Sequence record: PV660448
Source: Escherichia phage LF82-4
DNA: 64,000 nucleotides
Strand: one strand, 5' to 3'
Part shown: positions 1,632 to 62,667 of the stretch, one piece after another
Position numbering within the stretch: the stretch's first letter is position 1
Layout of the letters: every line of letters starts with the position of its first letter
Program-made: the position numbers and the translations under genes
The notes under the pieces: generated by a model
What the model was told of the DNA's origin: nothing
Databases searched by the model: none
What the model saw: the letters and a program-made list of their open reading frames with translations, nothing else

Positions 1632-2000
1632 TTATGCAACTTTAATCCAATTGTCTAAATTTAAAACACCTTTGGCTTTCATTTTTTCGATCAGGTTATC
1701 TGCTGTAATGCGTCCATTTTGATACCATGTAACATCTTCAGAGTAACCAGTTTCTTCGTCAACATATGTTTCTGAACGAATTTTACCTGTAATAATAGTT
1801 TTTAATTCGTATGTGTCACCTGTGAAAAAGTTTGCTAACACAATTTTCCAAGAGAAATCATCAGAAGGACCTTCAGGGGTCATACAACCTACGAACTCAA
1901 ATTGCTCTTTGTATAACATCCACTGGAATTCTTTAATTTCGATAGCTTTATAACCGTCGTGGTCTTTACATTTGATGTATGAGTTCAGATTGATTTTCAT
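1632..2000 (-). CDS. hypothetical protein (122 aa)
   Basis: ORF track; ATG at 1998-2000; promoter upstream. Confidence 0.5.
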   Translation of the reverse strand: MKINLNSYIKCKDHDGYKAIEIKEFQWMLYKEQFEFVGCMTPEGPSDDFSWKIVLANFFTGDTYELKTIITGKIRSETYVDEETGYSEDVTWYQNGRITADNLIEKMKAKGVLNLDNWIKVA

Positions 2001-2474: not shown

Positions 2475-2723
2475 TTATTTCAAAGTAATAACAAAATGAC
2501 GAACTGCTTTACGAGCTGCAGAAGCCAGAGGCTTAGCATATTTCAGTTCATCTTTTGCTTCCAGTTCAGCAGCCAGAGTAGCCTGAGCAGGATTCAGATG
2601 TTTGAAATATCGCAGGATTTCCAGTGCTTCGGCTTCAACATCAATTGAAGCGCCGTAGTTTTCGTGACCGTTATTCCATGCGTTGCGTTGCAGTTCAAGA
2701 GCGTGTTGTAATTGTTTAATCAT
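2475..2723 (-). CDS. rIII: rIII lysis-inhibition accessory protein
   Basis: 82 aa, same length and position as T4 rIII (downstream of gene 31). Confidence 0.7.
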   Translation of the reverse strand: MIKQLQHALELQRNAWNNGHENYGASIDVEAEALEILRYFKHLNPAQATLAAELEAKDELKYAKPLASAARKAVRHFVITLK

Positions 2724-2847
2724 TTTAAATTCTCAATTCGAGATAATATTTAGTAGCCACGTTCGTCTGAATTTCACCTTCTTTCGACAAGTCTCTCAGT
2801 TGTAGGCTACCGCTTAGAAGAGTGTTCTCTTCATATAGTTATTTATA

Positions 2848-10207: not shown

Positions 10208-10237
10208 ATTGTACCACAATCCTTGTGGTATGTAAAC
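10208..10237 (-). promoter_or_regulatory. T4-type early promoter with 8-bp inverted repeat in spacer
   Basis: minus-strand GTTTAC-N18-TACAAT upstream of rnlA. Confidence 0.5.
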
Positions 10238-10647
10238 TACTTTTTCTTATGTTGGATATTCCAAGGCGGGTTGAACTTTTTGATAAAAAGTGGTTCTTCA
10301 AGGTCCATTGTTGCAATGGTCATTGAACCAAGTTCGTTAGTGACTGAAAGGTCAAAACATTGGCGGGCCCAGAATTCAACCTTTTTGCCTTGCATTAAGG
10401 CATCCAAAATCATAAGTGATTTTCTTGAATCTGAAGTCTGGTCTTTTCGATTTATGGCTGTTCGATAATAGTTAATGCGTTTCTTTAAATTCTTGGTTTT
10501 ACCAATATACACAAGTTCGTCATCTATAGCAATAGCGTATATGACATTTTTCTTATTAGGGGCATCAATGGTTTTAATTGTTGCATCTTCTAATAGCTCC
10601 AATTCTATATATTTAATAAAGGAATATTCGGCGGCAATATCTTTCAT
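10237..10647 (-). CDS. denA: endonuclease II (GIY-YIG family)
   Basis: 136 aa; motif VIYAIAIDDELVYIGKTKNLKKRINYYR; recalled near-identity to T4 DenA. Confidence 0.85.
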   Translation of the reverse strand: MKDIAAEYSFIKYIELELLEDATIKTIDAPNKKNVIYAIAIDDELVYIGKTKNLKKRINYYRTAINRKDQTSDSRKSLMILDALMQGKKVEFWARQCFDLSVTNELGSMTIATMDLEEPLFIKKFNPPWNIQHKKK

Positions 10648-56341: not shown

Positions 56342-56539
56342 ATGTTTAAACTTCCATCGTTAATCAACGCTATTAAAGGCAATAAAAAGAAAACTGCTAT
56401 CGCTGCAATAGTTGTAGGTGGCATTATTTCATGGAACTTCGGTATCGCACCGGTGTTAGTTGCTAATGGTATTATAGTTCCTTCTGTTCCATTGGATACT
56501 GTAGTTGATTTGGCCTTTGCTATTATAGGGCTTGTTTAA
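56342..56539 (+). CDS. small hydrophobic membrane protein (65 aa) on opposite strand to neighbours
   Basis: strong RBS AAGGAG 7 nt upstream; two predicted TM helices. Confidence 0.45.
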   Translation: MFKLPSLINAIKGNKKKTAIAAIVVGGIISWNFGIAPVLVANGIIVPSVPLDTVVDLAFAIIGLV

Positions 56540-57558
56540 ATCTTCGAATAACGAGATAATCTCATTTTAGCATGCAACCCACTTGAAATATTCTGTTTCA
56601 TATATTCTAAAATTTCTTGTGGTGTTGCATTTTCTTTCATTACCATATCATTCACATCCTTTGAACTCCATGGAGCTCGGTCCCAGAACATGACACGTTC
56701 GCCTGCATCAACTAATCGCTTCATGCGAGCTATAGTATCTGGATGCCTAGGTTCATTATCCATTACCCATACCCGACGTTCTTTAAATGGTACCACATCT
56801 AAATCTATTGAGCCGCCTGTAATAGCGATTGCATTGGGTATGAATAAACTATCAATAGGACCTTCCATTACCCAGACGTCCCCTTCCTTAACACGTTCAA
56901 CACCATAAATTTTTGTTGCAGACTCAAACGCTTTAATAGTGATATATTTCTGAGGAGCATCTTTACGAAGTGCACGTCCTTGGAATGACTCAGCCTTCCC
57001 GTCTTTATTAAAAATAGGAATCACTAAACGTGGTTCGGGAATCTCTTTCTTATACGTACCAGGTTGAATCTTGTTGACCAATTTGGGCCATTCTAATGTG
57101 AACCATAATCTGTTCCATGATTCTTTAGGAATACACCGAGACTTAACATATTTCACAATAGGATGCTCTTCAGGCAACTTGTCCAGACGAGAACAAGACG
57201 GCAAAGAATTTATAGTCTTTTTCTCTGGTTCTGGTTTATGTTCAGGAACCTTTTCAATCTTTGGTTCCATTCTAGCTTTTTCTTTACGAACTTCCATTAG
57301 ATACTCGCGATAAAGCTCTTCATCATACTCTTTTAAGTATCCGGAAATTGTATTATGATATTGACAGTTATAGCAATGCACATTACCTGGAGTACCGCCA
57401 TAATACCATCCGCGGGCTTTCATTGCATCTGTCTGAGAGTCACCACAAACTGGGCATCGAAATGTTAATTTAAATGTGCTTGAATTATTGATTTGTCTAA
57501 AACGAGGTAGGTGAGAAAACGCACGATAAGCAAATTCATTATCTATCCATTCAGCCAT
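56536..57558 (-). CDS. 61: DNA primase gp61
   Basis: 340 aa; zinc ribbon CPVCGDS...HCYNC. Confidence 0.9.
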   Translation of the reverse strand: MAEWIDNEFAYRAFSHLPRFRQINNSSTFKLTFRCPVCGDSQTDAMKARGWYYGGTPGNVHCYNCQYHNTISGYLKEYDEELYREYLMEVRKEKARMEPKIEKVPEHKPEPEKKTINSLPSCSRLDKLPEEHPIVKYVKSRCIPKESWNRLWFTLEWPKLVNKIQPGTYKKEIPEPRLVIPIFNKDGKAESFQGRALRKDAPQKYITIKAFESATKIYGVERVKEGDVWVMEGPIDSLFIPNAIAITGGSIDLDVVPFKERRVWVMDNEPRHPDTIARMKRLVDAGERVMFWDRAPWSSKDVNDMVMKENATPQEILEYMKQNISSGLHAKMRLSRYSKI

Positions 57559-57597
57559 AGTATTCTCCAGAGGCCTTAAATTAATAAGGCCATCATA

Positions 57598-58092
57598 TCA
57601 CAACTTATTAATATTTACTTTAATTCGCTTTCTTTTCTTGGAAGGAATTTGTTCTGGACCTTTATTTACGACTGCACCTGTAGTTGTTCCTGATGCAATA
57701 GCTTGAGGGCTGCCACCTGAATCACCAGCAACCATATCCTCGAATAAAGGGAGTTCTTTAAATATTTCTTTCTGCTGTTCTTCCGTAATGTTATAGCGTG
57801 AAGCTACAGCACTCCAGGCAGACATCATTGAGGCCATTCCATTAAGACCTGGAACAGTACTCATCATTCGCTTCATTGAACGAACTGAAGCATGAAAAGG
57901 TGTATAAGCCGCTTTCTCTTCGGGAGTAGAAGGACGTTTAAGAACACTTCCACGTTCGTCGATTATTTTGGCTTCGTACGCTTTCCATTCGGTAAAAGGT
58001 TTTTGCATTAGTCGAATAAACTTATATGCGTAAACAGAATCTATTGCAGTGTTAATAATACCCATAGGTACCTCCTGAGTATATTTAATCAA
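57598..58092 (-). CDS. hypothetical conserved protein (164 aa), 61.1 position
   Basis: ORF track; synteny. Confidence 0.5.
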   Translation of the reverse strand: MIKYTQEVPMGIINTAIDSVYAYKFIRLMQKPFTEWKAYEAKIIDERGSVLKRPSTPEEKAAYTPFHASVRSMKRMMSTVPGLNGMASMMSAWSAVASRYNITEEQQKEIFKELPLFEDMVAGDSGGSPQAIASGTTTGAVVNKGPEQIPSKKRKRIKVNINKL

Positions 58093-58282
58093 TCACAAAG
58101 ATCGCTTTATCACCGTTCGCATCTGTGACTTCATATGTAGTGTCTTCATAGTGTGGAATATTCCAAATTACACCATCATTAGCTTTTACGCTAATATTGT
58201 ATTGGTGTTTTGAAACAACTTCATAATCTTCAAAACTTGTAAAAACACTAATTTTAGAACCAGTGCAAATTGCAGTAGTCAT
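58085..58282 (-). CDS. hypothetical protein (65 aa)
   Basis: ORF track. Confidence 0.4.
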   Translation of the reverse strand: MTTAICTGSKISVFTSFEDYEVVSKHQYNISVKANDGVIWNIPHYEDTTYEVTDANGDKAIFVID

Positions 58283-58283
58283 T

Positions 58284-58943
58284 TTAACCTCGATTCATAA
58301 ATGCATTAAATATTTGGTCATCAACAGAAATTTCTAATTCGACTTCAATTGCTTCAACCTTTTCTTCAGGTGGTAATTCGTATCCACACACTACAATTTT
58401 TTCATCGATATCAAAATATACAGAAGCAATACGATTAATGTTACTTTCAGTTAAGTCTAAATCAACATCAACATCTTTTTGACCTACACTTAAAGGATAA
58501 CTAATACGAGTTATTTTATTATCTTTAACAAAGAGTCCACCAACATACTCTGTACTACGTTTGAAGTTTACACGTTTCCGAATTGAAAGATATGATACAT
58601 CTTTACCGTGAGCTCGGCTCATAGGACATAATGAATAACTAGAATAAGAGATGTCAAATCCTACGCCTTCAACATGTGCTAGAGTATCATGAGTAAACCA
58701 ATTATAGTCGTATGCTAAATCCATTAAATTATAATATGTGAAAGGCACTGGATTAACATCATATGTTGTACCTTTAAAATCTGCCCATGCAACGATTTCG
58801 TTATCTTTAACAATTACAAAAATTACACCAATATGGTATCCATTATTATTTTCATTCGGCGTTATATTATAACATTGTGCATTAGGAAATTTACCATATT
58901 TAAATGGCGCGTTTTTGTGCATGTAATAAATCATATTATTCAC
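58284..58943 (-). CDS. hypothetical protein (219 aa), 61.2 position
   Basis: ORF track. Confidence 0.45.
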   Translation of the reverse strand: MNNMIYYMHKNAPFKYGKFPNAQCYNITPNENNNGYHIGVIFVIVKDNEIVAWADFKGTTYDVNPVPFTYYNLMDLAYDYNWFTHDTLAHVEGVGFDISYSSYSLCPMSRAHGKDVSYLSIRKRVNFKRSTEYVGGLFVKDNKITRISYPLSVGQKDVDVDLDLTESNINRIASVYFDIDEKIVVCGYELPPEEKVEAIEVELEISVDDQIFNAFMNRG

Positions 58944-59229
58944 CTGTGATTTCGGTTACGATATCTTTGTTATCGAAATTAGGGTCACAATACAAAACAT
59001 AGTTGTACTGCATGATACCGCCAGACTTAAGTTGTTCAACAACTTTATTAACCATATTAGGACGGTCTCGTTTAGTGATGTTCATGATATCAGAGAAGAT
59101 TTGTTGTTCAACCTCTTCTTGATTTGCAGTCATTGACCACTCACAGAGGTCTTTATCATAACCTGCTGTAACTGGAGCCGGTGCACATGATACTGCAAGT
59201 AAGATTGCTGCCAATGATAACTTTTTCAT
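58936..59229 (-). CDS. sp: spackle periplasmic protein (superinfection exclusion)
   Basis: 97 aa; signal peptide MKKLSLAAILLAVSCAPA; recalled similarity to T4 Sp. Confidence 0.7.
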   Translation of the reverse strand: MKKLSLAAILLAVSCAPAPVTAGYDKDLCEWSMTANQEEVEQQIFSDIMNITKRDRPNMVNKVVEQLKSGGIMQYNYVLYCDPNFDNKDIVTEITGE

Positions 59230-59258
59230 TTTAACTCCTTAGTTGATTTGATAGGACT

Positions 59259-59288
59259 ACTATACTATAGACCATCTATAATGTAAAC
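59259..59288 (-). promoter_or_regulatory. T4-type early promoter
   Basis: minus-strand GTTTAC-N18-TATAGT upstream of sp. Confidence 0.5.
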
Positions 59289-59292
59289 AAGT

Positions 59293-59541
59293 TTATTCTT
59301 TTTCGCGAATAATAATTACTTGTTGAGGCTGCTGAGCAGATTTCTTTTCGGCAACGATAGACCAAATTAAAGTTCCAATCCAACCAACCATCGTCCAGTT
59401 AAAGAGTAAAGATACAAAGAAGATTGCTGTTGTGCTTTTTGTGCCACGAATAAGTGCGATTACCCAAGGCAACATGTAAATGATGATTGAACCAATACCT
59501 GCGATTAAAACTGCTACTGAACTAGCCACGAATAATTCCAT
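59293..59541 (-). CDS. predicted inner-membrane protein (82 aa, two TM helices)
   Basis: hydrophobicity pattern. Confidence 0.5.
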   Translation of the reverse strand: MELFVASSVAVLIAGIGSIIIYMLPWVIALIRGTKSTTAIFFVSLLFNWTMVGWIGTLIWSIVAEKKSAQQPQQVIIIREKE

Positions 59542-59602
59542 GTTAATTTCCTCTTGATTTGTTATGTTTATAGTATCTTGGTTTAACTTTGGTGTAAACC
59601 AA

Positions 59603-59971
59603 TTAATTAAATTTGTTTAAACGTTCAATACACTGGACGTAGTTATTCGCGATTTGTTTCTGGGTAGGCTCTTTACCAGTTGTTTCAACATAGCGAATAA
59701 ATGCGATTTCAGTAGCCTGTAGACAATGTTCTTTAACGCGTTGTTCTTTTGACATAGCTACAGTATCAGAGTCACGATAACGTTGAGCATGAGCATCAGC
59801 TTGAATCATTCGATTACCTACAGTAACCGGGTCTTCCACTTCAACTTTAGGTTGGTTGTACTGTTTAACATTCGGATTGTAAATCAGTTGGCCAACGTTA
59901 TTAGGGATAAAGCCATGAGCACCACATCCGGTTAATCCAAATACCATTGCTAAAGCGATTAATTTTTTCAT
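59603..59971 (-). CDS. predicted lipoprotein (about 122 aa)
   Basis: start at MKKLIALAMVFGLTGC (lipobox) downstream of promoter 60000-60029. Confidence 0.5.
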   Translation of the reverse strand: MKKLIALAMVFGLTGCGAHGFIPNNVGQLIYNPNVKQYNQPKVEVEDPVTVGNRMIQADAHAQRYRDSDTVAMSKEQRVKEHCLQATEIAFIRYVETTGKEPTQKQIANNYVQCIERLNKFN

Positions 59972-59999
59972 TTCAATTTCCTCTATAGTTGATAGGTCT

Positions 60000-60029
60000 A
60001 TAGTATCACTACCATAGACCCCTGTAAAC
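60000..60029 (-). promoter_or_regulatory. T4-type early promoter
   Basis: minus-strand GTTTAC-N18-TACTAT. Confidence 0.5.
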
Positions 60030-60041
60030 AATTATTTTATT

Positions 60042-60182
60042 TTATTCCTCGTCTTCATGCTCGTAAGCATGTTCTTCAGATTCACGGTCGCAGTCTAAAC
60101 AAGTCGCATTATCATATGCATCGAAAACAGCTTCGTCTTCATAGACGCTACAACCACACACTACACATTCTACTTCTTCCAT
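60042..60182 (-). CDS. small zinc-ribbon protein (about 46 aa)
   Basis: CVVCGC...CLDC plus acidic tail; start at internal ATG adjacent to dmd stop. Confidence 0.35.
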   Translation of the reverse strand: MEEVECVVCGCSVYEDEAVFDAYDNATCLDCDRESEEHAYEHEDEE

Positions 60183-60183
60183 T

Positions 60184-60387
60184 TTAGATTTCCTCTTTAC
60201 GCCAATCGGATTCAAAAACTTTCTTATCATCAACAAATGCTTCAACTAAAGCTTTATTTACTTCAGCAAATTGAGAAGTGGCCCATAGGATTTGGTCTTT
60301 ATCAGACACGTCCATGGTAACTTCTTTGGTAAACATATTCCCATTTTCAAACCAACCAATAAACAACACTTTAGCCATATTTTCCAT
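60184..60387 (-). CDS. dmd: Dmd (antitoxin against host RnlA/LsoA RNases)
   Basis: 67 aa from MENMAKVLFIGWFENGNMFTKEVTM...; recalled similarity to T4 Dmd. Confidence 0.65.
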   Translation of the reverse strand: MENMAKVLFIGWFENGNMFTKEVTMDVSDKDQILWATSQFAEVNKALVEAFVDDKKVFESDWRKEEI

Positions 60388-60388
60388 T

Positions 60389-60706
60389 TTAGATTTCCTC
60401 ACAGAAGGCCCATTCAGCGTGATAAACTGTAGCACCTTTAGTATCATTCATTTGAACTACGTCTACCGGAGAAATTACTCGATAGAGACGTGGTTCACCT
60501 CCATAAGAGCGTGCTGCTCGTCCTGCATAAATCTTTGCTAAACCGATATCTTCAGTAAAGAATACACGATCCAAGTTTTTCTTACGTCCAGTTTCAGACA
60601 GAACTCCTGTTTCTTCAGGAGGACAAAGCATGTTTTCGATGTTAGCTGAACTACTTGAACCGTGATAAAAAATCTTAAATTCTGCTTTACAATCGATGGT
60701 TTTCAT
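60389..60706 (-). CDS. hypothetical protein (105 aa) with Y-H-G-S motif; not present at this position in T4
   Basis: ORF track; KIFYHGSSS...RLYRV pattern. Confidence 0.45.
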   Translation of the reverse strand: MKTIDCKAEFKIFYHGSSSSANIENMLCPPEETGVLSETGRKKNLDRVFFTEDIGLAKIYAGRAARSYGGEPRLYRVISPVDVVQMNDTKGATVYHAEWAFCEEI

Positions 60707-60732
60707 TTTGTTCTCCAGTAGTTGATAGGTCT

Positions 60733-60761
60733 ATAATAACACAACTACTGGAGAAGTAAAC
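60733..60761 (-). promoter_or_regulatory. T4-type early promoter flanked by 12-bp inverted repeat CTCCAGTAGTTG/CAACTACTGGAG
   Basis: minus-strand GTTTAC-N17-TATTAT. Confidence 0.5.
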
Positions 60762-61136
60762 TTAAAAACGTAATTTAGATATATCTGCGTTGATTTCGTT
60801 TTGGTTTGCGTCGTATGCAATTAAACGAACCGCTTTAGATGGGTCATTCAATGCATAGAAATGATGGAACATTGCTCGAACGATATCACCATTTACGAGT
60901 TCTACCTGGATAGGAGAACCTTTTTCGAGTTGGAAATGTTCATAAGCTTTGATGGTTCGCAGATAATCAAGTTTTTGATTTCCGGCTCCGACAATTTGTA
61001 CGATACGTTTGCCCATGTTTTCCATACGAGATACAATAGTTTTAGGGGCAAGAATAACGTAGGTTGCCAGTGGAGAAACTACTTCAACAGTTGTGTTTTC
61101 TGTGATTGCAGTAAAAATTGCTTGAGACATATTCAT
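60762..61136 (-). CDS. hypothetical protein (124 aa); not present at this position in T4
   Basis: ORF track. Confidence 0.45.
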   Translation of the reverse strand: MNMSQAIFTAITENTTVEVVSPLATYVILAPKTIVSRMENMGKRIVQIVGAGNQKLDYLRTIKAYEHFQLEKGSPIQVELVNGDIVRAMFHHFYALNDPSKAVRLIAYDANQNEINADISKLRF

Positions 61137-61195
61137 AATGTTTTCCTCTTGGTTGGTGTAAGTTCATCATATCATGCCTAGAGGAAGATGTAAAC

Positions 61196-61218
61196 CCCGA
61201 AAGGAGACCGAAGTCTCC
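61196..61218 (-). terminator. hairpin GGAGAC-CGAA-GTCTCC after gene 41 (palindromic; T-run is on plus strand)
   Basis: third copy of the GGAGACCGAAGTCTCC element. Confidence 0.45.
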
Positions 61219-61224
61219 TTTTTA

Positions 61225-62667
61225 TTAAAATTTTAACTCGTTGGCTAAGCTATCTAGGTCAGCACGTGTTGCTTTGGCTTTACCTACGCGTTCCGTACGA
61301 TTCACCTCTGCCTGACGCATCTGAGCACCTGCGTTTTCATTTACTGTGTTAGGTGTGTTCATGCCTTCTTGCTCAATCTCAATCCATTTCTGGTTACCTT
61401 TACGTACACCCATCAGGAATTTATTCCACTTATTCTTATCACCATATCGTGATTTGATTTGTTTGATAAGTTGTTGTTCGGCTTGTGCAAGTTCTTCGGT
61501 TTCAATTACAGCCAACATGAAATCTGCTGTCGCCGGTAAACCTGCTGATTCTGCAATATCGCTCATGTTCATGTCTGAAGCATCCCATGCTGCACGTCCT
61601 ACTTGAGCTGCAGTCCATAGAACTGTTTCAGATTCTACTGCTAATGCACGAAGTTCTTCTGCGATAGCTTTAACTAATGTGTAACTATTTTCAGTGTAAA
61701 CTCTGATACGACAAGACCCACAAATACCTAAGTAATCGACTATGATTACAGACGGCACAAAGTTCTTCTTGAGTTTCAATTCATTAAGCAATGCACGGAA
61801 TGTATTAGCATTAGCTCCGCCAGTAGGATACTGTTTGACTACTAAACGTCCTAATGTTGATTTTGAACGCCATTTTTCCATCTTGGCTTTATATTCAGCA
61901 TAAGATACGTTACCATCATCGATATCATCGAGCGATACGTCAAGCATATTTGCATCTATACGCTTAGCACAAACTTCTTCAGCCATTTCCATGGAAATAT
62001 AAAGAACATTATGTCCTGTTTGAAGATAATCTGCAGCAAGTGAACAAAGGCCTAAAGATTTACCAACGTTAACACCGGCCATTAAAACGTTCAGTGTACC
62101 TTTTTCTGCACCACCTTTGGTGATTTTATTAAGAATGTTTAATTTGAACGGGACCTTACGTGCTTTATTTAGATAAGAAAGCCAGCGTGCTTCGTAGTCT
62201 TCCATCCAGTCATGCCCAACATAACTATCAAACGAAATTGAAAGTGCTTGACGCATAATATCAGGAATAGCTCCTACGTCAGGCATTTTCTTGTTACGTT
62301 GTTCTGGAGGTAGTTCAGCATTAGACTGAATCTCAATGATTTTGGATGTAGCATTATACATCGCTTTTTGCTGGACATACTTCTCAGTTTCTTTAACCAA
62401 CCATTCGTGGTCTTCAGGAGTATCAGCCAATTTTTCAATTAGGTCTGAAGTTCCTTTATATTCAGCTTCAGTTAAAGAACTGTTATCTAAAGCCACCTTT
62501 AATGCATTGATAGATGGCATTGCATTATATTCGTTAACGTGGCTCTTTATAATTTTAAAGACATTTTTTGCCGGTCCACGCTCAAAGTAATCAGAATCCA
62601 TATAAGGCCAGACCTTAGAAAAATAAGCCTGGTCGTATACGAGATGAGACAAAATAATTTCTACCAC
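61225..62667 (-). CDS. 41: replicative DNA helicase gp41 (DnaB family)
   Basis: 480 aa; Walker A GVNVGKS. Confidence 0.9.
   Translation of the reverse strand: MVEIILSHLVYDQAYFSKVWPYMDSDYFERGPAKNVFKIIKSHVNEYNAMPSINALKVALDNSSLTEAEYKGTSDLIEKLADTPEDHEWLVKETEKYVQQKAMYNATSKIIEIQSNAELPPEQRNKKMPDVGAIPDIMRQALSISFDSYVGHDWMEDYEARWLSYLNKARKVPFKLNILNKITKGGAEKGTLNVLMAGVNVGKSLGLCSLAADYLQTGHNVLYISMEMAEEVCAKRIDANMLDVSLDDIDDGNVSYAEYKAKMEKWRSKSTLGRLVVKQYPTGGANANTFRALLNELKLKKNFVPSVIIVDYLGICGSCRIRVYTENSYTLVKAIAEELRALAVESETVLWTAAQVGRAAWDASDMNMSDIAESAGLPATADFMLAVIETEELAQAEQQLIKQIKSRYGDKNKWNKFLMGVRKGNQKWIEIEQEGMNTPNTVNENAGAQMRQAEVNRTERVGKAKATRADLDSLANELKF

Follow-up and report, generated by a model that had tools for sequence, protein, structure and literature searches.

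The sp–imm–imm.1 locus of Escherichia phage LF82-4 and its RB69-type arrangement

The stretch of DNA analyzed here, hereafter the window, comprises 64,000 nucleotides of Escherichia phage LF82-4 (PV660448) and derives from a Mosigvirus, an RB69-like T-even phage; at the locus described below, it is 100% identical to Escherichia phage LF82-9. Within this locus, we observe that sp, imm and imm.1 are known T4 superinfection-exclusion genes lying in the order annotated for RB69, and that the cluster they form is an ordinary one. Taken as a whole, the locus very probably shows how the superinfection-exclusion genes of T-even phages are laid out in Mosigvirus (the RB69 type), a reading built on the orthology, copy number, positions, promoters and breakpoints established in this work.

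A first-pass annotation had described four consecutive small genes in this region. All four ORFs are confirmed at those coordinates, on the minus strand (Table 1), and all belong to conserved families (PF25676, 1e-42; PF14373, 2e-15; PF17578, 4e-9; phrog_13952, 2.5e-29), with the starts of imm.1 and of the fourth gene corrected relative to a mechanical ORF list from TTG 60031 to ATG 59971 and from TTG 60245 to ATG 60182, respectively. The annotation had also described the whole set as envelope-targeted, which holds for sp, imm and imm.1 but not for the fourth gene, whose 46-aa acidic product (Zn46) has a pI of 4.05, a net charge of about -17, no signal peptide and no hydrophobic or transmembrane segment.

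Table 1. Features of the locus, in window coordinates.
Feature	Coordinates	Strand	Description
sp (spackle, T4 gene 61.3 orthologue)	58936..59229	-	97 aa; PF25676, T4 Sp alignment, PDB match
Early promoter of sp, T4-type	59259..59287	-	TTTACA-17-TATAGT, then AAGGAG, ATG
imm (immunity to superinfection)	59293..59541	-	82 aa; T4 Imm, PF14373, phrog_1039
Early promoter of imm, T4-type	59570..59598	-	TTTACA-17-TACTAT
imm.1 (DUF5481)	59603..59971	-	122 aa, predicted lipoprotein; T4 Imm.1, PF17578, phrog_1754
PeSL-type element upstream of imm.1	59994..60029	-	GTTTACA; 12-bp stem-loop 59994-60021; TACTAT 60005-60000
Early promoter of imm.1, T4-type	60000..60028	-	TTTACA-17-TACTAT
Zn46, acidic CxxCxC...CxxC peptide	60042..60182	-	46 aa; phrog_13952 2.5e-29
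dmd (discriminator of mRNA degradation, antitoxin-type; context)	60184..60387	-	PF17587 2.8e-24

Orthology and position of sp and imm

The assignment of sp is based on a match to PF25676 (144.9 bits against a cut-off of 27, 1.1e-42, residues 1-96 of 96), 67% identity to T4 Sp across 97/97 aa, and a match to the PDB entries 6x6o/7cn6, "Protein spackle" (E 5e-40). The N-terminus consists of MKK, a hydrophobic stretch at residues 4-24 and a VTA/G site at 22/23; like the lipobox calls below, this signal-peptide call is rule-based and is backed by conservation. Sp is predicted to be secreted to the periplasm, losing a 22-aa signal peptide to leave 75 aa in its mature form, and 7cn6_A, the mature 75-aa T4 Spackle, matches residues 23-97. 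Both Cys29 and Cys81, the candidate partners of a disulfide in the mature protein, are conserved with T4 Sp, which binds and inhibits the gp5 tail lysozyme (PMC7677548). By homology, the window's Sp would be exported to the periplasm, where it would bind the lysozyme domain of gp5, the tail-spike protein that incoming phages carry, and inhibit it.

The imm product aligns end to end with T4 Imm (82 of 83 aa, 64% identity, E 4e-37) and matches PF14373 (1.8e-15, 56.9 bits against a cut-off of 27.9) and phrog_1039 (1.2e-30). It is a small membrane protein with hydrophobic segments at residues 1-34 and 40-59 on the Kyte-Doolittle scale. T4 Imm is described, in the parts of PMC6832632 and PMC7677548 that summarize the T4 literature, as blocking the DNA entry of secondary T-even phages, and its homologue in the window may likewise act in the inner membrane to stop secondary-phage DNA from crossing. 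Nothing in the cluster or among its neighbors scored above cut-off against PADLOC or NCBIfam, and an Rfam scan of 58000-61400 returned only a sub-threshold chance match to a miRNA.

The arrangement itself was already known, as the RB69 RefSeq record (NC_004928) names sp, imm and imm.1 in this order; the first-pass annotation had missed the identity of Imm and Imm.1. In RB69, the genes RB69p035-RB69p039 are sp, imm, imm.1, 61.4 and dmd; of these, sp, imm and imm.1 share their order and orientation with the window, as well as their flanks, which are 61.2/AdfA on one side and, on the other, dmd, ORF040c, ORF041c and gene 41. The two phages differ between imm.1 and dmd, where RB69 has 61.4 (70 aa) and the window has the unrelated Zn46, and in that the window carries a Dhakavirus-type promoter/stem-loop upstream of imm.1. 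When compared to T4, the three orthologues are of equal length (97/97 aa for Sp, 82/83 for Imm and 122/125 for Imm.1), and in both phages, imm.1 lies directly upstream of imm and follows an early promoter of the GTTTACA-17-TACTAT type. However, imm.1 and imm are 11 nt apart in T4 without a promoter between them, whereas imm has its own promoter here; a small hydrophobic ORF that overlaps the imm stop codon in T4 is absent; and sp adjoins imm.1-imm in the window but not in T4. The T4 orders are 43 > imm.1 > imm > 42 and dmd > 61.4 > sp, such that imm.1-imm lies between genes 43 and 42, roughly 6 kb from sp.

This last difference is one of position alone, as the gene content equals that of T4. 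Imm matches occur in 1040 phage records, exactly one per record, and the sp-imm-imm.1 arrangement is common to about 155 records at at least 95% DNA identity. In LF82-9, the 43-42 interval holds no imm and is instead occupied by an arabinose-5-P isomerase gene and related genes, while in the outgroups (Dhaka-, Gapriver-, Jiaoda-, Moon- and Gelderlandvirus and Serratia 4S), imm stays beside gene 43 or 42. Judging from these sequence comparisons, the imm.1-imm pair left its place between genes 43 and 42 in Mosigvirus and now lies, still single-copy, between dmd and sp, so that all three envelope genes are contiguous. The receiving interval is plastic, with four different contents in four phages, and the slot next to dmd holds Zn46 here, 61.4 in RB69 and nothing in LF82-1.

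These observations bear directly on the proposal that the locus is an expanded exclusion or envelope-remodelling module, in which a membrane protein, a lipoprotein and a zinc peptide have been added to the T4 set. T4 does have only 61.4 between dmd and sp, and at this locus, the window does hold more envelope genes. However, T4 imm and imm.1 account for the two-TM protein and the lipoprotein, which were relocated rather than gained: imm is single-copy, both genes are missing from the T4 position in the genus, the total envelope gene set is that of T4, and the zinc peptide is not envelope-targeted. Orthology and copy number refute an expansion as far as imm and imm.1 are concerned, and the proposal as a whole is extremely unlikely. 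The label of a superinfection-exclusion module suits sp and imm, which are classical T4 superinfection-exclusion genes, but it extends neither to an expansion nor to Zn46. To the letter, the cluster is not identical to the T4 61.x set, which the first-pass annotation had named as a refutation, but the spirit of that objection holds, since these are known T4 genes.

Early promoters and the promoter/stem-loop element

As the first-pass annotation had noted, three of the genes have their own early promoter. These genes are sp, imm and imm.1; their promoters occupy the three intergenic spacers, read along the minus strand and lead into GAGG/AAGGAG and an ATG. Matches to the T4-early pattern GTTTAC-N17-19-TANNAT number 21 in the window, where 0.92 would be expected, and 20 of these matches lie on the coding strand; the promoters are thus not attributable to chance. 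With an early promoter each, sp, imm and imm.1 would be made immediately after infection.

The promoter-early stem-loop (PeSL) cassettes of T4-type phages (Arbiol et al. 2010; Comeau et al. 2014; PMC2839356, PMC4122927) offer a close comparison. In such cassettes, as in the intergenic elements here, a TTTACW-N17-TAYWAT promoter comes with a stem-loop that covers the -35 and -10 boxes or lies between them, and a Shine-Dalgarno sequence and an ATG follow; the genes alongside are small and non-essential, and indels or replacements have their breakpoints within the elements. In the window, strong stems are confined to the elements upstream of imm.1 and of the ORF for a 105-aa ART-like protein. The element upstream of imm.1 folds at -17.9 kcal/mol (z -3.1), and it is the only convincing PeSL among the three promoters, the stem-loops at sp and imm being weak (z -0.4 and -1.7) and these elements essentially plain promoters. 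Homology to LF82-1 ends at 60009, which places a mosaic breakpoint inside the imm.1 element, and the imm.1 spacer is identical to the element upstream of sp in Dhakavirus CLB_P2 and unlike those of RB69 and LF82-1. Recombination at conserved PeSLs would produce changes of the sort seen in the relocation of imm.1-imm and in the variable contents beside dmd.

Zn46 and the dmd-linked block

The fourth gene encodes a putative zinc-binding peptide, with two CxxC pairs conserved in its homologues: Cys6, 9, 11, 28 and 31 (C6-x2-C9-x-C11 and C28-x2-C31) are invariant in five of them. No Pfam match was obtained at E 0.1 or better, and none of the curated zinc-ribbon models reached its cut-off (NCBIfam ECs_2282_CxxC, 17.1 bits against 37). 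T4 61.4 was considered as a counterpart of either the lipoprotein or Zn46 and was rejected, as it is similar to neither; the true 61.4 homologue is a 79-aa ORF in Dhakavirus.

Because Zn46 is contiguous with sp, imm and imm.1 in the window and shares their orientation, all four genes could be taken as one functional unit, with Zn46, for example, regulating or chaperoning the envelope proteins from the cytoplasm. We consider this very unlikely on distributional grounds. Zn46 is found in only 57 phage records and in about 16 of the roughly 155 Mosigvirus records that have sp-imm-imm.1, and it is absent from RB69 and LF82-1, both of which have the three envelope genes. In Dhakavirus, Zn46 follows dmd, and imm is 8.7 kb away. 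The local arrangement in the window points the same way, as a single base separates the dmd stop codon from the ATG of Zn46, and imm.1 is set apart from Zn46 by a promoter/stem-loop element. Zn46 is a cytoplasmic protein carried along with a dmd-linked block and lies outside the envelope module. An exact 19-bp direct repeat (D4), GAGGAAATCTAAAATGGAA, flanks dmd at 60177-60195 and 60382-60400.

Imm.1 and its possible relation to Imm

Imm.1 is 99% identical to its RB69 counterpart and 32% identical to T4 Imm.1 over its full length (BLASTP E 1e-18), and it matches PF17578 (37.3 bits against a cut-off of 27) and phrog_1754 (4.5e-29 over residues 1-120). Its N-terminus consists of MKK, a hydrophobic stretch and, by rule, an LTGC lipobox at residues 13-16 (MKK...FGLTGC, Cys16). 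Among the ten Imm.1 relatives examined, nine have a lipobox of the form L[TAS]GC, while one family member, P0002, reads LAGF, with Phe replacing the lipobox Cys; the lipid anchor is not universal in the family. In E. coli, Asp at position +2 governs the membrane sorting of lipoproteins. The +2 residue of the window's Imm.1 is Gly, and Asp never follows the lipid-modified Cys in any homologue, so sorting to the outer membrane by the Lol pathway is predicted. Imm.1 would thus be a lipid-anchored periplasmic protein that is made early.

In the AF2 model of Imm.1 (mean pLDDT 63), residues 1-44 have pLDDT <50, and helices span residues 48-67, 75-98 and 104-120, with the C-terminal helices being the only confident part. 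The model is consistent with a disordered tether followed by a C-terminal three-helix domain carrying Cys83 and Cys114; compared with its relatives, the window's Imm.1 is without the first Cys pair and about 3-15 tether residues. A Foldseek search of the PDB gave no match (best E 3.8), and apart from DUF5481, there was no match in Pfam, NCBIfam or PADLOC. A deep homology search recovered eight representatives among 1.84 billion, all of them T-even-like. A full-text search, which was swamped by unrelated "Imm. 1" strings, found no literature on Imm.1 function, and the T4 CRISPRi-ART paper contains nothing on imm.1.

What is conserved about Imm.1 is its neighborhood. In eight T-even lineages, which between them show two gene orders and two loci, imm has a phrog_1754 lipoprotein nearby, in every case with a lipobox: imm.1 is 61 nt upstream of imm in the window, it adjoins imm in T4, RB69, JD18, Merlin, NP4 and 4S, and in CLB_P2 and RZ, a lipoprotein of this type is one small ORF from imm. 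An apparent restriction of Imm.1 to Tequatro- and Mosigvirus in tblastn was discarded as a sensitivity artefact, as the PHROG profile matched imm neighbors in other genera. A comparison of the Imm.1 alignment by hhalign with the lipoproteins of JD18 and CLB_P2 matched no more than 30-57 columns at the N-terminus, so the family membership of these two rests on the PHROG profile. That the lipoprotein keeps its place beside imm across eight lineages, in either of two gene orders and despite a relocation, suggests that Imm.1 is a partner of Imm, and from its context as a conserved neighbor across T-even phages, Imm.1 may assist Imm. Because the relocation was possibly a single event, joint presence at the new locus is in itself weak evidence of function, and the two genes have come to have a promoter between them in Mosigvirus. 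The fuller proposal that Imm.1 is a conserved third component of T-even superinfection immunity, anchored in the outer membrane and working with Imm by, for example, engaging the tail tip of an incoming phage or positioning Imm where penetration occurs, is offered tentatively, and we regard it as somewhat unlikely in that form.

An alternative to which we give slightly less than an even chance is that the adjacency of sp to imm.1-imm is functionally meaningless, reflecting neutral shuffling of cassettes in a hyperplastic region, and that the role of Imm.1 is unrelated to Imm. The plasticity of the dmd-sp interval and the location of breakpoints at promoter elements are both consistent with shuffling; moreover, with a promoter for each gene, adjacency is not needed for co-expression, and T4 sp and imm function from separate loci. 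Nothing counts against neutrality where the position of sp is concerned, and that part is compatible with the RB69-type layout. It is the second part, an unrelated Imm.1, that sits poorly with the recurrence of the lipoprotein beside imm described above.

Imm.1 could also act independently of Imm by masking a receptor, in the manner of T5 Llp or lambdoid Cor, thereby blocking adsorption or triggering at an outer-membrane receptor. The receptor that Llp and Cor block is FhuA, whereas exclusion by T-even phages takes effect once adsorption has occurred. Llp and Cor are small phage lipoproteins, expressed early or from a prophage and implicated in excluding secondary phages, and Imm.1 resembles them as a small early lipoprotein with a predicted outer-membrane location (no Asp at +2). 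Llp in particular provides a precedent for a phage lipoprotein in exclusion (PMC9586334). However, Imm.1 has no detectable homology to these proteins, and neither sequence nor fold similarity to Llp or anything else was found in our searches. T4-infected cells still adsorb secondary phages, with exclusion following adsorption (PMC6832632), and the Imm.1 family is kept in phages of hosts with different receptors. Receptor masking is therefore improbable.

As first described, the cluster has little significance, being the standard Mosigvirus arrangement of three named T4 genes together with a variable small ORF. Two points have modest value. The locus shows cleanly, in nature, how genes are moved and replaced at promoter/stem-loop elements within a hyperplastic region of T-even genomes. 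In addition, T4 Imm, a protein whose mechanism has stayed unclear since the 1970s-90s, has a near-universal genomic companion in the lipoprotein Imm.1.

Relocation of imm and imm.1 to the sp locus

The region is 100% identical to that of Escherichia phage LF82-9 (Mosigvirus, Tevenvirinae) and at least 99% identical to that of several further Mosigvirus genomes, and every gene between 56.5 and 62.7 kb of the window lies on the minus strand. The four small genes are as the first-pass annotation described them, with the Sp profile match, two hydrophobic segments, lipobox and cysteine pairs all found. That annotation had also suggested that they form a superinfection-exclusion or envelope-remodelling module expanded relative to T4. 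An exclusion cluster is indeed present, but it is built from known T4 genes alongside an unrelated zinc peptide (Zn46), and imm and imm.1 have been relocated rather than added, with imm in single copy.

In T4, one locus has the order 43, imm.1, imm, 42, and a second, about 6 kb away, has dmd, 61.4, sp, 61.2. The 43-42 interval of LF82-9 contains no imm and instead holds an arabinose-5-phosphate isomerase gene and related genes. By tblastn, Imm was found at exactly one place in each of 1040 phage records; thus, imm has not been duplicated. In the sampled outgroups (Dhakavirus, Gaprivervirus, Jiaodavirus, Moonvirus, Gelderlandvirus, and Serratia phage 4S), imm adjoins gene 43 or 42, and therefore the T4 position is ancestral and the sp-adjacent position a Mosigvirus trait. 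Contiguous sp-imm-imm.1 is common to about 155 records at at least 95% DNA identity, and the RB69 RefSeq record gives, by name, the order sp, imm, imm.1, 61.4, dmd; the arrangement is an already known, RB69-type layout of known T4 genes.

Coordinates of features; genes of the 56.5-62.7 kb map are listed in transcription order
Feature	Sequence	Coordinates	Strand	Remark
gene 41 helicase	window	61225-62667	-	first of map
124-aa ORF	window	60762-61136	-	flanks 60733-60761 and 61166-61224
105-aa ORF	window	60389-60706	-	
dmd	window	60184-60387	-	
46-aa Cys-rich ORF (Zn46)	window	60042-60182	-	one of the four genes
122-aa ORF (imm.1)	window	59603-59971	-	one of the four genes
82-aa ORF (imm)	window	59293-59541	-	one of the four genes
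sp	window	58936-59229	-	one of the four genes
61.2 / AdfA	window	58284-58934	-	
65-aa ORF	window	58085-58282	-	
61.1-like ORF	window	about 57598-58065	-	
gene 61 primase	window	56536-57558	-	last of map
Promoters flanking 124-aa ORF	window	61194..61166 and 60760..60733		
19-bp repeat	window	60177-60195 and 60382-60400	-	
imm.1 promoter/stem-loop	window	59994-60021 (12-bp stem)	-	GTTTACA + stem + TACTAT; -17.9 kcal/mol, z -3.1
Sp motif region	window	59184-59229		Sp residues 1-15, compared with T4 Sp residues 1-15
Hydrophobic ORF	T4 locus (L002)	10230-10377	-	
Hydrophobic ORF	CLB_P2 locus (L005)	2707-2844		
Hydrophobic ORF	RZ locus (L008)	1740-1883		

Early promoters and mosaic boundaries

Three of the four genes had been proposed to have their own early promoter, which is borne out by spacer position, orientation and pattern enrichment. 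Each spacer of the cluster contains one correctly oriented sigma-70/T4-early promoter (three in all), followed by a Shine-Dalgarno sequence and an ATG. In the window, GTTTAC-N17-19-TANNAT has 21 occurrences versus 0.92 expected, 20 of them on the coding strand; the spacer promoters are therefore true early promoters of T4 type and not a by-product of AT-richness. The reported T4/PST-type consensus is TTTACW-N17-TAYWAT (PMC4122927).

When compared to phage LF82-1, the window is 99.2% identical over 56500 to 60009, where similarity ends; identity is regained over dmd and the 105-aa ORF (87%), is gone again over the 124-aa ORF, and reaches 98% in gene 41. The break at 60009 falls within the promoter/stem-loop element upstream of imm.1. 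The spacer of this element is identical to the one found ahead of sp in Dhakavirus CLB_P2 and differs from its RB69 and LF82-1 counterparts. The Shine-Dalgarno and coding sequence of imm.1 are of Mosigvirus type. Break and swapped spacer match the modular shuffling mediated by promoter-early stem-loop (PeSL) elements described for T4-type phages (PMC2839356). The 124-aa ORF, which has a promoter on either side, the downstream one covered by a 14-bp stem (z -5.35), looks like a PeSL-bounded indel; a strong terminator-like hairpin lies past gene 41. This ORF is a homologue of RB69ORF041c (phrog_10668), present in the window and RB69 and absent from LF82-1.

The dmd junctions and neighboring ORFs

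An exact 19-bp direct repeat, GAGGAAATCTAAAATGGAA on the minus strand (Shine-Dalgarno, stop, ATG), forms both the 105-aa ORF/dmd and dmd/Zn46 junctions, so that dmd is precisely bracketed by identical translational-coupling junctions; the repeat is a possible substrate for precise gene gain and loss in the dmd operon. The Zn46 ATG lies inside this motif, one base past the dmd stop codon. Zn46 (pI about 4, net charge about -17) has five invariant cysteines (C-x2-C-x-C ... C-x2-C) and lacks both a signal and a TM segment. Only 57 phage records contain it, comprising a minority of Mosigvirus and the Dhakavirus genomes; its slot holds 61.4 in RB69 and is empty in LF82-1. In CLB_P2, Zn46 stands between dmd and 61.4, sp comes next, and imm lies 8.7 kb off. 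The missing signal and TM segment, patchy occurrence and distance from imm in CLB_P2 speak against the earlier placement of this zinc-ribbon peptide in an envelope cluster, and Zn46 is a passenger unrelated to the exclusion module. T4 61.4 was rejected as a counterpart of either Zn46 or the lipoprotein, as neither resembles it.

Directly upstream of dmd, the 105-aa ORF is a homologue of RB69ORF040c and is absent from T4. Its product has no match in Pfam, NCBIfam, PADLOC or PDB sequences. The 149 homologues show 60-99% conservation, and among them are proteins of phages named after Pantoea, Serratia, Proteus, Erwinia and Vibrio hosts; H15, G16, R41, Y60, R63 and E103 are invariant. The confident AF2 model (pLDDT 86.8) has as its top PDB neighbor the Arr rifampin ADP-ribosyltransferase (9iaf; prob 1.0, E 0.03, TM 0.58), followed by Tpt1/KptA and then ART toxins. 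The ORF probably encodes a minimal enzyme of the ART fold in an anti-defense neighborhood, although the E-values are weak. Directly downstream of sp, the orthologue of T4 61.2 matches Pfam AdfA (anti-DarT factor A, 4e-118).

Imm, Imm.1 and Sp

The 82-aa protein with two hydrophobic segments is 64% identical to T4 Imm end to end (E 4e-37) and matches PF14373, identifying it by sequence as the Imm orthologue. A hydrophobic ORF of 45-49 aa overlaps or abuts the imm stop codon in T4, CLB_P2 and Gaprivervirus RZ; the T4 copy (MKSKIIAALLLILMIIISIYY...KYECIN) is without annotation in NC_000866, and the CLB_P2 copy matches phrog_3610. The Mosigvirus locus has no such ORF after imm, with a promoter and sp there instead. 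With this ORF, the imm module may have a third small membrane component.

The 122-aa protein begins with MKK, followed by a hydrophobic stretch and then the LTGC lipobox. Its full-length similarity to T4 Imm.1 (32% identity, E 1e-18), matches to PF17578/DUF5481 (above cut-off) and phrog_1754 (4.5e-29), and 99% identity to the RB69 protein annotated 'Imm.1' mark it, at the sequence level, as the Imm.1 orthologue. In its AF2 model, residues 1-44 are disordered and a C-terminal helical hairpin is confident; a PDB search with this model gave no structural neighbor. Cys83 and Cys114, invariant across the family, sit on the hairpin and would most simply form a periplasmic disulfide. In eight phages including ours, the imm-adjacent protein combines membership in phrog_1754 with a lipobox of the form L[TAS]GC and a pair of C-terminal cysteines (T4 6e-43, CLB_P2 2e-52, RZ 5e-47, JD18 2e-15, Merlin 2.5e-48, NP4 7e-46, Serratia 4S 5e-9). 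The lipoprotein precedes imm in six lineages, while two have imm, a 45-47-aa hydrophobic peptide (phrog_3610) and then the lipoprotein; a Providencia phage, in which the Imm-like match is only weak, has no phrog_1754 lipoprotein neighbor. Imm.1 is thus the usual companion of Imm, and genomic context makes it possible, if doubtful, that the two act together. Lipoprotein sorting in E. coli is governed by the +2 rule, and because Asp never follows the lipidated Cys, either in this Imm.1 or in the relatives examined, outer-membrane sorting is predicted. In a 45% identical metagenomic homologue (P0002), LAGF-SAHA replaces the LxGC lipobox and resembles an ordinary SPase I signal peptide; as the lipobox Cys is missing, some Imm.1 proteins may be soluble in the periplasm rather than lipid-anchored.

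Sp matches PF25676 (1e-42) and shares 67% identity with its T4 counterpart; it also matches the solved chains of Spackle, the mature 75-aa chain aligning to residues 23-97. The Sp signal peptide carries a motif resembling a lipobox ahead of the accepted cleavage site (A-V-S-C15; L-A-S-C15 in T4), which is probably not used, since the solved mature protein begins at residue 23. T4 Spackle is a periplasmic inhibitor of the gp5 lysozyme domain, which it binds in a 1:1 complex (PMC7677548). Imm is an inner-membrane protein that, with Sp, stops translocation of the secondary-phage genome and leaves adsorption unaffected (PMC6832632, PMC7677548). Given the respective identities of 67% and 64%, the Sp of the window would likewise inhibit gp5 lysozyme in the periplasm, and its Imm would impose the same block on genome translocation. 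These exclusion genes sit inside an anti-defense hot spot, with the AdfA gene downstream of sp and Dmd upstream.
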